Assembly (NCBI GenBank): GCA_033551855.1
Contig: JAWSUI010000032.1
Span: 1 to 45,069, forward strand
Direction of reading: 5' to 3'
DNA from: Deferrisomatales bacterium
Lineage (GTDB): Bacteria; Desulfobacterota; Deferrisomatia; Deferrisomatales; JACRMM01
Length of the DNA: 45,069 nucleotides
Positions 12,001-30,000 of the stretch are shown one piece after another. The position numbers were made by a program. Positions within the stretch are counted from its first letter, which is position 1, and each line of letters opens with the position of its first letter.

Positions 12001-15000
12001 ATCCTTCGCCACAGTGCTCCATGACGTGCTCGACAAGTCGGTCGTGAATCAACATAGAGTTCTTTGCGTGATCCAAGTTGAGGGCCAGCTCCTTTGTGCC
12101 AAGTACGGGATACCTGTCGCCTGATGCCAAACCTTCGACTCTATGCTGCTTTACCTTGCCGTGCTTGATTCTAGCCTGCAGACCGTTCGGAAGGTTCCAA
12201 ACTGGCGCGTCATGCGCGAAATCGTTCCGGAACTCGACCAAGCTGTTGAGGTCAGCAGAGAGGTCCTTTGGAAATGCGTCCGTCCCTGAAAGCTCGAGCG
12301 CTGAGTCGATCCGCTCTCGGAAGTTCTTCTTGTCGAAGCCATGCACAGCCAGACGCCACGACTCGGGGCTACTTGTACTTTCTGCGAGAACGGCCTCCGC
12401 GCAAAGTCTGAAAAACGATTCGATTGCAAACACGGGCATCACCACGGCGGCAACGACCGGTCCTGACACGATCATGTCGTAGTTCATCGTCAGGACGGCA
12501 CAGACTTCACCCGGGGCGCGACCCGCTTCAACACCTCTCCTCCAGGCCTTCATGAGCCCTGAGAACTTCTCTGCGGCACTCATGTAGCAGGAGAAGCACG
12601 ATTGCCTAAGTAATCTCCATTTCGAATCAAATGTGCCCTCGACGTGCTTCTCATAGTACTCTGCAGCTGAGGCAGCGTCTCTGATATCAAAATCCAAAAG
12701 CTCTCTATCACTCATTGGCAGACACCTGCTTATCTGGCTAGCATCGCAAGCTGTGGATCTGCGAAATGGTGTCGGTGCACAGGAATAAGTTCCCTCCCAC
12801 CTACCCCAATACCTCCACCAACTCCGCCACAATCAGGAACTCGCCCTCTTCAATGTCTTCCAAGACGATCGGCTCGTACCCGGGTTGGTCCGTGTCGGGC
12901 TTGAGGACAACCCGCTTGTGGCGCCACGTGCCGTCCACATCCTCCTCCTTTTCCGACTCGTACACCTTGACCGTGTAGCTGCCGCCGAGCTCGGAGTCTA
13001 CGATGTCGCGGTGCGCGGCGAGCACCACCTTGCCCTGTCGGGTCCCGCCTGGGTTCGCCCGCCAGAGGCACCACGCCCCGTTCGGGATGCGGTGGTTCAT
13101 CGACTCACCGACAACTTGCGCCACAAAGAGTCCCGGCGCGGGCCGGGTTCGGCCCTCCAACTCCACCCACTCCCACTCGTCAGGCGCAAAGGGTTGAGTG
13201 TCGCTGAACGCTCCTGCTGCCGCCTTCAGCGGGATGAGTGGCACGCAGGTGACATAACGTTCCTCATGGGTCGGCTCCACAACGCGCAGAGGGGGCCGGC
13301 TGCCCCCGGTCACACGGCTGGCCGGCCTTTCTGGACCCCCTTCGAGGACCCCCAGTATCGGCATCCGAGCAGGTTCGGTCCCAGCATTTGCGGCTTCTGC
13401 ACGCTCGAACCAGGTCGTATCTTCCTTGATCGCCCGCTGCTTCACCTTTCCCACCAGGTATTTCGCTATGCGCGCGATCGCTCGAACCACGGCGTTCTTG
13501 TCGTCGAGCTCGAAGGAGCGGACGACCACCACCTCGTAGCCCAAACTGTCGAGTTTGGCGCGAATGGCGCGGTCCTTCTCCGCCTGCTCGGGGTTGCCGT
13601 GAATGTGACCCGCCATCCCGTCGAGGTAGATGCAGATGCCGAGCTCGTCGGCGTCTTCGCCCGCGTAGAAGAAGTCCGGGATGGTGCCGCCGTACCCCGC
13701 GCCCAAGTCGATCCTGTGCTGGCAGCGCGGCACGGAAAGGCCGGCTTCGCCGAGGAGCCGCTTGAAGCGGTTTTCGATGTATGTTTGACTCTGGCCGGTC
13801 GTGCTCCCGGTCTTTTGAAGGTGCTCGGGAATCGGGTGAACCTCTACGAGTGGCCCATGCGTACCCTCCAGCACCCGGGTCGCCACGTGACGGTCTAGGT
13901 ATTCGTGGTAGAAGCGATTGCGGTAGGTCTGAAGACAGTCGATGCACGACGACTCGCAGGCGCCTGGGCACAGGGTCAACAGCTCCAGGGCGGCGTTTTG
14001 AACCTCCTCCCAGCGCTCGGCCAGGTGCTCGAGCAGTCCCGAGCCGCCGGGCATCGGATCGTAGAGGAGCACGTCGCAGGTCTCCTCGCCGATGTGGCCC
14101 AGCGCCAGCAACTGCAAATCTTCGACCTCCATGTCGAGCACGCGCGCGGCCCCCATGCGCAGGGCCTCGACGACGCTGAATCCCAGTTTGCGATCCTCCA
14201 CGTCATGGAGGCCGAGGACGTCCACCTCCACGTCCGCGAAGAACCCCGTGGGCTGCACGACGTGTCCGCAGCGCTCCAGGTGGAACTTCTCGAACTCCTG
14301 CCGAGACTTCATGCTCGCGAAGGGCGAGTGCGACTGGCCACACGCCAGGCAGAGCGGGAAGCCTAGCCTCGTCTGCTCCACCTCTTTGCGCGGCCCCACG
14401 TTCACCAGGCGCAGTTGCACGCCGCGCCGGAACCGAACATTCAGATCGCCCCACGACCACGCCGTGCCGCCCCGGTGATAGCCGCGGTCGTTGCCGTAGG
14501 TGGCCACGGGCATCTGAAATCGGAACTCCTCTTCGTCAGAGATTTGCGACTGGGACGGGAGGATGACATCGCACACCGGCACCGCCCGCAACTCCTGCTC
14601 GGCCAGCATCGCGTTCGCCGTGTCCGAACCGACCTCCTGCACCACCTGCTGATCGACGATCACGCGGAAACGCAGGGTCTCCTCCGGCGTGAGCAGGAAG
14701 CGGCGCGGCACGAAGCGGAAACCGTTGGCATAGATCGCGTTGCCGGGCACGTACTCACGCAGGGCCAGCGTCGGCGGGCGCGGCAGGTCGAAGTCATCGA
14801 GGCCTTGGGTCATCCGAGGCGGCTCCGCCGTCCCCACCAGGCTGCCTGACTCGAGTCCGTACCCCGGCAAGAAGCCCTCGCGAGCCAGCGCCCCCATCGT
14901 CTCGGAGTCATCGGGGCCGCCCTGCGACTTGCCCCGAGACCGGGCGTACGTGCCCTTGAGCCGTGCGATCACCTTCTCGCAGCGCCGCTCGTGGGCCTTG

Positions 15001-27000: not shown

Positions 27001-30000
27001 GGCGTCGCCCAGGTGCAGCAGCCGCGAGTCCGGCTCGGGGGTGTACACCGGGCGCCCGTTCGGAGTGCCGTCGTGGGGCTGCACATAGTGGGCCGGGTCG
27101 AATACCAGCGCGAGCAGGGGGCCGGACGGTCCGCCCTCGCGGAGGGTGTGGTCGACCAGTTCCTGCCAGAGTGCCGGCACCGGGTGCACCAAGCGTTTGC
27201 GGCCTTCGCCGTCGGGCTGCAGCCTGGGCCGACCGGCCTCGATGGCGAGCGCCGTCTCCAGTGTCTCCCGTAGGGTTCCGGGGGAAAGGTCTAGCTCGGC
27301 CTTGAGGTCTTCGAGGTGCGCGAGATCCTCGGCGCCGGGCAGGGGGCTGCCGGTCGGGAGGTCGTCCACAGCCTCCGCCTGTGTCGCCCGGGCCTGGCCG
27401 ATGACCCGCTCGAGGCGCCCTTCGGCGGCCTCAGCGTTTTCCTCCGCCTCGAAGTGGGCGAGGATCGCGTCTGCAAAGATCTCGTCGGTGACGACCCGGT
27501 CTTCCCGGGTCTGGGAGCGCTTGCGCAGCACCTTGCCCAGGAAGCGCATCGAGGCGTCATCCGTGCTGTCGAAGTGGAGGATATGAACATCGCGCCGCTG
27601 TCCGTGACGGTCGAGGCGGCCGTTGCGCTGCTCCATGCGCGCCGGGTTCCAGGGAATGTCCCAGTGGAGCAGGTAGCGGGCAGCGCGCTGGAGGTTCAAC
27701 CCTTCCCCTGCCGCGTCGGTGGCGAGGAGCACGCGGGCCGGGCCCCGGGGGTCGTTGAAGGCCCGCTTGACGGCGTCGCGCTCGGCGTCGTTCATGCCTC
27801 CATAGAGGCTGAGCAGCCAGTCCCCCGCTCCGTACCGGGCACGCAAGCGCGCGCGAAGGTAGTCGAGGGTCGCCAGGTACTCGGTGAAGACCACGAGTCG
27901 TTCTTCGGGTTGCCATCCGGAGTCAACGCGCAGCCGCGCGTCAATGACCGCCTCGAGGGCGCGCAGGCGGGCATCGGCCTTCACGTGGGAGGCGCGGGAG
28001 GCGACTTCGGCGGCGTGAGAACCCGGGTCCAGCCCCGGAGGAACGCGGGTGACGCCGATGGCCTCGACCTCGCGGGTGACGTCGGCGATCTCGGCGCCCA
28101 GTTCTCCCCGCCACTGCCGCAGCCAAGCGCCCACCGTGCGGTCGGCGTGGCGCTGGCGGCTCTCCCGTTCTGCGTCGTCGTCGGTGTCATCATCTTGCGC
28201 GTCGCGCGCCCGCGCGACGGTGCTGGCAGCGGCCTGCTCGTGATCTTCCTCGAGACCTTCGAGCAGCGCCAGCCAACTCTGCCCGAAGGGCCAGGGGCCC
28301 GACAGCAGGCGTTTCTGCAAGACCTCGGTGGCGAAGCTGGCCGCCGTTCGCTCCTGGTGGTCCGCGCCGCGCAACACCCTCTTGAGGGCCTTGCGGAAAT
28401 CGCGCAGCGCCAGGTGGAGGGCGCGCTCATGGCTGCCGAAGTGCAGCGCCGGCAACGCCTCGACGTGGCGGTCGGAGAACCGCGCCGGCTCGCCGAGAGC
28501 TGTATAGCAGGAGTTGATCTCGCTCTTGAGGCGTCGGATCACGGCCTCGCCGACGCGGCGCCGGTCCTCGCCGTCGAGCTCGGACTTGCGGGTGAAGCGC
28601 ACCGGGTCGAGAGCTTCTAGAAGGCCAGAGAAGGAGCGGGTGTGTCCGTTGTGAGGTGTGGCAGTCAGGAACAGGCGGTGTTCGAACCAGGGTGCGATGC
28701 GCTGGAGCATCTTCGCGAGGTCCGAGTCCGCACCGAAGCTCGCGGGCGAGAGGTTGTGGACCTCGTCGACGATGAGCAGGTCCCAGCGCAGGCGACCGTC
28801 CTGCCCCGGCTCGACCGCAGCACGAAACTGTTCCAGCACGTCAGGCTGCTTGAGGTAGTGGTAGCTCGCGATGATGCGCTCGTGGGTACGCCATGGGTTG
28901 GCGTCCACTCCGATCTCGCGTTGGAGTTTGAGCGTGTGTGGTCGGTCGACCACCTCGAATGGCAGCGCGAACTTCTCCTGCATCTCTTCGCCCCACTGGG
29001 TGCGAAGCGCGGCGGGGCAGAGAATCAGCACCCGCCGGATGCGACGCCGGAGCATGAGCTCGCGCAGCACCATGCCGGCTTGAATGGTCTTACCGAGGCC
29101 GACGGCATCGGCGAGCATGAGAGCCACCCGCGGCATCTCGAGGGCCCGCAGCACCGGCACGAGCTGGTAGGCCTCCGGGTAGATGGCGCCGTAGAGGGGC
29201 GCTGCGAGAGGCGGCCGGTCGTCGTCGAGCCCGGAGAACGGAAGCGACGGGGTAAGTGCGGACCAGCGGGAGGCGCGGACCATGGCGTCGAACTCGCGCG
29301 GTTCCATGGGCGCGGTGTGTTCGACCCGCGGGAGGGCGGAGGGCTCCAGCACCTCGGTGCCCGGCTCGACCTCCCACAACACCTCATCTGTCTCGACGCC
29401 GGTGCCGTCCGCGTACTCCACCTCGACCAAGTGATAGCGACCGGACTCATCGGCGTCGAACGGCTGGACCCCCATGATCATGGCGCGGCGGTTGCGCACC
29501 ACCGCCATCATGCCTTCGCGCGGGTTGCCGCTGGTCATGCGACCCCTCCGTCAGCGGACTCTTCGTCGGCCGCCCCCCCCGAGCGCACCCAAGCATCGAC
29601 TTCCGACAGCTTCAGTCTCCAAAACTTGCCCACCTTGTGCGCGGGAAGACCCTTGGCATCGATCCACCGATATACGGTCTCCTTCCCCACGCCCAGGTGC
29701 GTCGCCACTTCGTCCACTGAATGCCAGCGCTCTTCCATCACGGCACCGTCCAGGGTGTATTGAGGCCAAAGACAAATACTTTCGACAAACCGAGGTCAAA
29801 GTAGACAATCGTCGGGTATCGGTCAAGGCCGGAACACCGTGGGTACTCCCCGACTACCGTATCCCAATCCCGAGCTCGGTCCTCTCCGACGGGGGCAGAG
29901 GGGAAAAGACCACGGGATCGCCTTTGCCCCCGGAGGGATCTCAGGGCCAGTCTGCGTTGGGCACCCGACCCATTACAGAGGTCGCCGACGAGTGCCTCGT

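Follow-up and report, generated by a model that had tools for sequence, protein, structure and literature searches.

A stretch of 45,069 nucleotides from a Deferrisomatales bacterium (contig JAWSUI010000032.1, below called the window) carries three large genes reminiscent of both DISARM and Druantia, and the question is which defense system they form. An earlier note took them for a single system standing between these two and implied that it was new. The first part of this claim is borne out by the literature: Bell et al. 2025 (PMC12458937) named the three-gene system ARMADA and placed it as a link between DISARM and Druantia. New it is not, ARMADA type I having been published after PADLOC 2.0. 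We consider that the locus armA-armB-armC, which is cargo of an F-type conjugative element, is very probably ARMADA type I.

In PMC12458937, ARMADA comprises a DrmD-like SNF2 helicase (ArmA), a DrmMI-like methylase (ArmB) and ArmC, a YprA helicase that resembles DruE and includes a Vsr nuclease. Two of these proteins are common to DISARM, the YprA helicase is nearest to Druantia, and the system is termed a “missing link”. In PMC13463889, ArmA, ArmB and ArmC are the counterparts of DrmD, DrmMI and a fused DrmAB, and DrmC is absent. This agrees with the suggestion that one DruE-type protein replaces DrmA and DrmB at our locus and that DrmC is missing.

The genes lie on the minus strand at the positions given earlier, with abutting or overlapping reading frames. 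ArmA (26260..29538, minus strand, 1092 aa) is a DrmD/BrxHII-like SNF2 helicase that scores 629.6 bits with NCBIfam DISARM_DrmD (cut-off 610) and has intact Walker A, DExH and VI motifs. ArmB (g02415; 21347..26263, minus strand) is, by PADLOC profiles and motifs, a PglX/DrmMI-like adenine methyltransferase of 1638 aa if read from GTG or 1633 aa from the next ATG. ArmC (g02411; 12801..18836, minus strand, 2011 aa) is a YprA-family DEAH helicase with the helicase core and the OB-CON-DUF1998 arrangement in one reading frame (DEAD, Helicase_C, MZB/DUF1998). The earlier description of it as a DruE-like DEAD/helicase/MZB protein was right, and had missed the Vsr and LexA-like domains at its C-terminus. 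Zinc modules inside the helicase are marked by five CxxC motifs, which fall within aa 513-978 and are unchanged in all 12 sequences compared. The C-terminal Vsr-type nuclease domain of type I is present at about aa 1683-1796 (13449..13790, minus strand), with invariant Glu1688, Asp1721, Asp1739, His1746, Asp1755 and Arg1759. All PADLOC scores reported before were reproduced exactly: DrmD 618.9 bits for ArmA; REase_MTase_IIG 1305 and DrmMI 424.9 for ArmB; DruE3 346.4, DruE1 343.4 and DrmA 62.4 for ArmC; HEC-03B 280.8 and NsnB 192.8 for the ATPase discussed below.

The locus shares DrmD and DrmMI homologs with DISARM class I. It differs in that DrmA and DrmB, separate genes in DISARM, are here fused into one Druantia-like protein (a single 2011-aa reading frame with just 62 bits for DrmA); among the operon genes and their neighbors there is no match to DrmC or a PLD nuclease. 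With Druantia it shares a YprA helicase with fused DUF1998, and DruE profiles are the best PADLOC matches of ArmC. However, these matches span short stretches only, Vsr stands in place of the PLD domains, and no Druantia partner profile (DruA-D, DruMFG, DruH) matched in the neighbors scanned, nor DruH in the genome. ArmC falls outside the DruE III clade in a tree built without DruE I/II references. A new DISARM subtype or an undescribed hybrid was ruled out, the locus being ARMADA.

Type I is matched by the BrxHII/RapA-like helicase, the PglX-like methylase and the fused YprA helicase with zinc-binding inserts, DUF1998 and a single C-terminal Vsr, and by the lack of ArmD. Inserts of BrxA-like, MarR-like and coiled-coil HTH type are further traits of type I. 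The locus is set apart from published type I by its A-B-C gene order, its LexA-type tail, an embedded cassette and its carrier, an F-type conjugative element rather than a satellite-like one; the string “conjugat” does not occur in the main text of PMC12458937. That paper gives the A-B-C order for archaea and cyanobacteria, as a minority order and not the type I norm. Type II has the same three core genes in the same order. It differs in needing ArmD (UvrD + RelE), in extra inactive EEP/Vsr domains and in forming a separate clade, with identities of 22-33%. A GajB-like ArmD had no match on the window contig or in 38 related loci, several of which have a short downstream flank; the missing ArmD and the tree position rule out type II.

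The conjugative setting noted earlier was confirmed. On the plus strand lie a TrwC/MOBF relaxase (5320-8412) and the TraD coupling protein (9423-11690), together spanning 5320..11690, and, on the other side of the cargo, the F-type transfer region with an S26 peptidase, TraF, TraH and TraG_N (30115..36508). The sister element on contig C53 indeed lacks the cargo: both flanks match (86.8% over 7.1 kb and 84% over 1.9 kb), and the traD and traF matches are about 2 kb apart there versus about 19 kb at the ARMADA locus. No tRNA was found in the window and no integrase among the proteins scanned, and promoter and terminator scans gave counts at chance level. A gene for a HEPN-like protein with an Rx4H motif (11792..12715, minus strand; weak Pfam HEPN match, E 0.057) is separate low-GC cargo outside ARMADA. 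As a substitute for ArmD it was ruled out, having a homolog in none of the 38 related loci and being replaced in a close relative. The 68-aa HTH_17 protein g02417 (29535..29741, minus strand), previously called an excisionase, overlaps the start of armA and matches the MADS mad1 profile with 53.5 bits; it is therefore more likely a regulator, probably of the ARMADA operon. In a tblastn search of the fetched related loci it had no homolog.

Between armB and armC lie three more genes on the minus strand. The earlier note rightly recorded this insert. It is a mobile system in its own right and no unexplained component of the trio. Its first gene (20012..21328) encodes a HEC-03 ABC ATPase (AAA_15/AAA_21 with DUF3696) that matches HEC-03B over its full length; Walker A Lys38 is kept in 77/77 sequences and His354 in 80/80. 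The second (19519..20019) encodes a 166-aa protein that does have a PADLOC match, a partial one to HEC-03A (E 3.5e-11, 41.5 bits). It is a PIN-domain ribonuclease with a conserved acidic site (Asp7 78/79, Glu62 75/81, Asp107 80/81, Asp130 74/81). The third (18827..19522) overlaps the start of armC and encodes a 231-aa ATP-dependent RNA-ligase-family nucleotidyltransferase (PF09414, 107.8 bits), in which all ligase motifs are retained and the KxDG lysine is kept in 88 of 89 sequences. Its model has a pLDDT of 91, and its best fold matches are Naegleria RNA ligase, T4 Rnl2 and REL1; no solved structure related to it by sequence was found.

Judged from sequence, the insert is the validated HEC-03 ATPase-PIN system plus an RNA ligase. 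The paper bioRxiv 2024.01.29.577857 presents HEC-03 as an ABC ATPase and PIN pair that is embedded in other systems and needs both genes for defense. Our locus resembles HEC-03 (Payne et al. 2024) in having the ATPase followed by the PIN protein, each detected by its PADLOC profile (the A and B labels of PADLOC are the reverse of those of Payne et al. 2024). It differs in the ligase gene after PIN; the word “ligase” is absent from the main text of bioRxiv 2024.01.29.577857. We found no description of the trio in the literature, though Krishnan et al. 2020 and Burroughs and Aravind 2016, outside the scope of our search, may cover it. The trio is mobile by itself in 65 of 80 ligase loci, and its neighbors elsewhere are mostly unrelated housekeeping genes (68/97 representative neighbors scanned). 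The armB-armC slot is empty in 4 of 29 loci and holds other cassettes in 8, so that its content is exchangeable; this rules out the insert as a core part of the three-gene system.

We tentatively suggest, at clearly below even chance, that the slot holds an independent back-up HEC-03 system whose ligase would most likely reseal PIN-cut RNA and so limit or reverse toxicity. A serious competitor, although itself short of probable, is that the ligase is not a repair enzyme but a passenger, or else a second effector that adenylates or circularises RNA of the phage or RNA cut by PIN. At 231 aa the protein is no larger than a nucleotidyltransferase domain on its own, and two-gene HEC-03 defends without a ligase, both of which suit this alternative. 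So does weak covariation with the other two proteins: ligase distances follow those of the ATPase and PIN weakly (Spearman 0.15 vs 0.75). Resealing is also weakened by the absence of the ligase from 19 of 24 PIN-first loci and by its presence switching at least six times on the ATPase tree, in which two rows are mislabelled. Resealing is favored by the complete ligase motif set, by the nearest folds being nick-sealing RNA ligases and by the fact that the ligase is seldom apart from the ATPase-PIN pair (the same 65 of 80 loci, and also 4/4).

At its C-terminus ArmC bears an intact self-cleavage module of LexA-type S24 kind (about aa 1862-2011; 12804..13253, minus strand) with the peptidase S24 fold, an Ala1874-Gly1875 site and a Ser1912-Lys1957 dyad; the structure model covers the last 354 aa of ArmC only. 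LexA, lambda CI and UmuD (peptidase family S24) share the fold, the site and the dyad, but where they have a DNA-binding domain, here a 1,850-aa helicase-nuclease precedes the module. The tail is present in 28 of 33 complete ArmC relatives and absent from 5, and tails of this type occur on thousands of other proteins, mostly of restriction type. Ala-Ala stands ahead of the predicted cut in 119 of 120 tails, a conservation that is partly kinship, since these sequences share 56-76% identity with the query. The terms LexA, S24, peptidase and protease do not appear in the main text of PMC12458937 or in its Table S2; no description of a fused S24 tail was found in the literature searched.

These motifs lead us to propose, at clearly below even chance, that the tail is an off-switch. 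It would cleave itself on RecA-ssDNA filaments and leave ArmC with an Ala-Ala end resembling a ClpXP tag; removal by ClpXP would then stop the motor when the DNA of the host is damaged or when the system enters a new host. It is rather unlikely that the tail is instead an on-switch or a targeting module, which dimerises or inhibits ArmC or docks on RecA-coated phage ssDNA, so that cleavage activates defense. Such a role would be in line with the dimerisation of the LexA C-terminal domain and with the related DruE, which dimerises and is triggered by ssDNA. Against it, the near-universal Ala-Ala fits a latent degron, the tail is also found on HsdR, which is known to be removed in response to damage, and ArmC occurs without a tail in five loci.

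The search for relatives of g02411 recovered the same 38 loci as before. Within the 10-kb flank, 29 of them have armB and 17 have armA upstream of armC on the same strand. Of the nine loci lacking armB, six have no upstream DNA and one has 2.9 kb; two have 10 kb of flank and still no armB, an observation that speaks against our main reading. A search of 40 related genomes yielded no close ArmC of full length. A protein of Syntrophus buswellii aligns with the whole of g02411 at 50% identity and comes from a locus of matching gene order; PMC12458937 lists it as “ARMADA Type I helicase”. ArmC groups with XLM98887.1, listed as type I, with support of 99/100. Among the 34,868 rows of Table S1 of PMC12458937 that were covered, nine further accessions of related loci do not appear, one match was to a different, DISARM-like contig, and “Synechocystis” has no match.

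In a small tree the ArmC clade stands apart from the other five type I references on a long branch of its own (99/100), its ArmC shares no more than 24-33% identity with those of other type I systems, and its gene order is type II-like, with the tail in addition. These features would suit an ARMADA subtype of its own, still without a name, or a new system altogether, which we nevertheless consider improbable: one clade member was labelled type I by the ARMADA authors, a tree test (p-AU 0.11) does not reject joining the clade to type I, and the A-B-C order also occurs at other listed type I loci.

ArmB retains the SAM-binding and NPPW residues in 17 of 17 relatives, among which internal identity is lowest at aa 1301-1400. 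This variable target-recognition region (near aa 1300-1400) is replaced in a near-identical relative. The N-terminal nuclease fold is degenerate. We take its catalytic motif, and so the position of that motif in ArmB, to follow the pattern PD...(D/E)xK; this set is absent from the N-terminus in 19 close relatives aligned, and the window protein is without the acidic pair. The nuclease site being seemingly dead, it is very improbable that g02415 acts alone as a type IIG restriction enzyme with the helicases as bystanders, as the earlier note had allowed, despite its top PADLOC score (REase_MTase_IIG) and variable recognition region, all the more as armB is linked to armC in 29/38 loci and every gene is required in ARMADA type II.

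As ARMADA type I, the locus most likely works like BREX or DISARM class I. ArmB would methylate host sites, with specificity set by its swappable recognition region, and ArmA and ArmC would serve as ATP-driven DNA motors. ArmC would load on invader DNA that lacks the mark or has single strands exposed, unwind it and cut it via Vsr, so that the phage is blocked and the cell is not killed. Gene identity, intact motifs and gene linkage are observed here, and the methyl-based self mark and Vsr cutting are inferred. That all three of ArmA, ArmB and ArmC should be needed, and that the outcome should be non-abortive, is carried over by analogy from type II. According to the accessible text of PMC12458937 and PMC13463889, type II is the only phage-tested form (E. 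coli OI-172), requires all arm genes, ArmD included, and defends non-abortively. The locus lacks the ArmD that type II requires, and this counts against the type I reading, as does the want of a type I test in the accessible text of the two papers. DruE III can do without its fused PLD nuclease and gave no reproducible cutting in vitro, so the effector step may be something other than cutting by Vsr.

Since the hybrid was already published in 2025, the locus mainly shows that PADLOC 2.0 misses ARMADA. Apparently new are the LexA-like tail of ArmC and the nested nuclease and RNA-ligase cassette, neither of which was found in the accessible literature searched. The locus is useful because its type I system is intact, is borne by a conjugative element and has a natural near-twin with another recognition region in ArmB; comparison of the two would be a direct test of whether specificity is set by ArmB. 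We give nearly even chances to at least one of two built-in brakes in this branch of ARMADA, an SOS-cleaved tail that exposes a ClpXP tag or a ligase that reseals PIN cuts. If the ligase does so, abortive-type defense would be made reversible by a compact toxin-plus-repair module with a new minimal RNA ligase. If the tail is a brake, it would be a protein-encoded restriction alleviation common to many HsdR, Res and Schlafen-type helicases and would allow passage by conjugation into unmethylated hosts. Such an SOS-triggered degron would explain how DNA-scanning defense motors avoid attacking the cell they live in while its DNA is repaired and once they have been transferred, and would apply across thousands of restriction enzymes.

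The trio of large genes in the window, armA (DrmD-like SNF2 helicase), armB (DrmMI-like methylase) and armC (DruE-like YprA helicase, g02411), is an ARMADA type I system. The earlier note had interpreted these genes as one defense system on the border of DISARM and Druantia; this was right in substance but is not new, ARMADA being already in print (Bell et al. 2025, PMC12458937). The window is the entire contig C32. The six ORFs of 12801-29538 are real, lie on one strand (minus) and are tightly coupled, the PADLOC scores of the earlier note were obtained again, and the block is indeed flanked by relaxase/TraD and by TraF/H/G. 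Both flanks have matches in a sister element on contig C53, in which they lie about 2 kb apart, compared with about 19 kb in the window; thus the ARMADA block is cargo.

The same element bears a CBASS locus at 39236-42119 (minus strand), which consists of genes for a patatin effector (41103-42119), a CD-NTase (39936-41093) and an E2-like protein (39236-39955), all on the minus strand. A second cargo block of low GC lies ahead of the relaxase (1-4736, plus strand) and encodes a truncated TrlF/Ppl-like ATPase, a Crr6-like protein, a DSP-PTPase phosphatase and a 669-aa DUF4365 protein.

The search recovered 38 related loci, including one of Syntrophus buswellii, whose protein XLM98887.1 is labeled “ARMADA Type I helicase” in the available part of Table S1 of Bell et al. 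2025 (PMC12458937). It is 50% identical to g02411 across residues 1-2011 (1810 bits). Scores of g02411 were 397 bits (Haloquadratum) and 367 bits (Allomeiothermus) against listed type I proteins, 273 bits against E. coli type II ArmC, and 259 bits against DruE III. In a 23-row tree g02411 and XLM98887.1 are grouped at 99/100, separately from type II and DruE III, and the remaining five type I references are on a different, weakly supported branch; a constraint joining the window clade with all type I references was not rejected (p-AU 0.11). According to the accessible text of PMC12458937, armC is usually the first gene in type I, the A-B-C order also occurs, and ArmD is an addition of type II. 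No ArmD-like gene was found after armC in the window or in the 38 related loci, several of which have a short downstream flank. ArmD thus also occurs outside type II: in Allomeiothermus and Thermus, at two loci that are listed as type I and whose order is A-B-C, armC is followed by a gene for an ArmD-like UvrD protein (L042, 16120-18141; L043, 18111-20105).

The gap between armB and armC is variable. Among 29 loci with armB upstream of armC it is empty in four, contains ATPase, PIN and ligase genes in ten, ATPase and PIN genes in six, a broken version in one and other genes in eight, among them Menshen, HEC-01-like and AbiE; at one locus Septu and GmrSD are also found around the ATPase-PIN-ligase trio. 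On a plasmid of Synechocystis sp. B12 a locus of the window clade is fragmented (L040, 1069-18479), and its armC is preceded by a small toxin-antitoxin pair of the PIN type. Such embedding of systems was described by Payne et al. (bioRxiv 2024.01.29.577857), in whose available text HEC-03 is an ABC ATPase plus a PIN protein, both genes being required. The window insert matches both PADLOC HEC-03 profiles.

The third cassette gene retains all nucleotidyltransferase motifs, and its modeled fold resembles nick-sealing RNA ligases. The ligase search gave 560 loci; among the best 80 of these, mostly situated among unrelated genes and spread over many phyla, PIN and ATPase genes are directly upstream in 65, an ATPase without a detected PIN in four, only a PIN in two, and neither in nine. 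Among 300 evenly sampled genomes of the phylum, the ligase occurs in four others, with PIN and ATPase upstream in all four. The converse fails: the ligase is present at 5/24 PIN-first loci. Cleavage by metal-dependent PIN nucleases yields 3'-OH and 5'-phosphate ends, on which ligases of this type act directly, and therefore RNA repair is our first guess for the function of the ligase. Ligase distances track ATPase or PIN distances weakly (0.15 vs 0.75, in a ligase set picked by similarity and thus of narrowed range), which fits action on RNA ends better than a fixed protein contact. A role as a second effector is about as likely as repair. No description of the ligase came up in the literature searched, including word searches of the HEC, Menshen and modularity papers.

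The final ~150 aa of ArmC have weak similarity to Pfam S24 and a LexA fold. Of 33 relatives whose C-terminus is complete, 28 have this tail; its Ala-Gly site, serine and lysine are conserved in 29/29. A search for longer proteins with the tail gave 2,502 matches. Type I HsdR proteins and DUF2075 helicases make up most of the best 120, and type III Res, SNF2 and ArmC proteins also occur among them; all 120 retain the triad, 119 have Ala-Ala before the cut, and in 118 the tail is C-terminal. The HsdR of the source genome bears the same tail, and this genome also encodes recA, clpX and an ssrA tag whose last residues are Ala-Ala. From the accessible texts, cleavage of LexA-like proteins exposes a ClpXP degron (PMC5742171; for the site, PMC9578287), and HsdR is removed by ClpXP after damage or upon entry into a new host (PMC12707154). 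Our best guess, by analogy, is therefore that the tail would be an SOS-triggered off-switch; it may instead be an activation or docking module. The tail is not mentioned in the available ARMADA text (PMC12458937), nor is a fused S24 tail reported in the literature searched.

By sequence, the last 160 aa of ArmC relatives can be sorted into three or more types, and these are at odds with the relationships of the helicase: ArmC of locus L002 is 82% identical overall and 60% in the tail, which suggests repeated tail swaps. In two Gammaproteobacteria bins (L002 and L008, 10450-12500) about 2.4-2.6 kb interrupts armC near its 5' end. ArmC relatives of 50% identity at L032 and L033 (around 10001-15430) have neither the S24 tail nor armA/armB in the fetched flanks; at L032 a JAB/E1-E2-like gene is upstream. 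A type I restriction locus (L128, 3605-15792, contig C17 of G000) parallels the window in layout: hsdS and hsdR are separated by a Gabija-like pair of OLD/TOPRIM and UvrD genes, and its HsdR ends in the same tail.

ArmB methylase motifs are invariant in 17/17 relatives. The suggestion that g02415 (armB) could be a stand-alone type IIG enzyme is disfavored because the N-terminal nuclease-like domain of the window protein appears to lack the acidic catalytic pair at the positions that we presume from the motif pattern, and 19 close relatives have no conserved acidic pair there. Identity of ArmB falls to 0.35 at aa 1301-1400. A close relative on contigs of three DNA runs of one study is linked to the same transfer genes; its armC, armA and 5' armB are 95-97% identical to those of the window, whereas the 3' armB, insert and downstream gene are all divergent. 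In E. coli type II armB also holds most diversity, according to the available part of PMC13463889. From these patterns we infer that ArmB sets sequence specificity.

ArmC helicase motifs and zinc cysteines are conserved in 12/12 aligned proteins (one cysteine in 11/12), and a structure model with fold search predicts a Vsr-like C-terminal nuclease. In the texts available, type II defense is non-abortive and requires all four genes, the ArmA and ArmC Walker motifs and the NPPW motif (PMC12458937); DruE III binds ssDNA, unwinds 3' to 5', clears phage while cells survive, is toxic under mitomycin C and can dispense with its fused nuclease (bioRxiv 2026.05.13.724758). By analogy, type I most likely acts as follows: self DNA would be marked by methylation, the ArmA/ArmC motors would act on invader DNA that is unmarked or exposes ssDNA, and ArmC would cut or stall. 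The core system is already published; the interest of the locus lies in two testable add-ons, the tail and the HEC-03 plus ligase insert.
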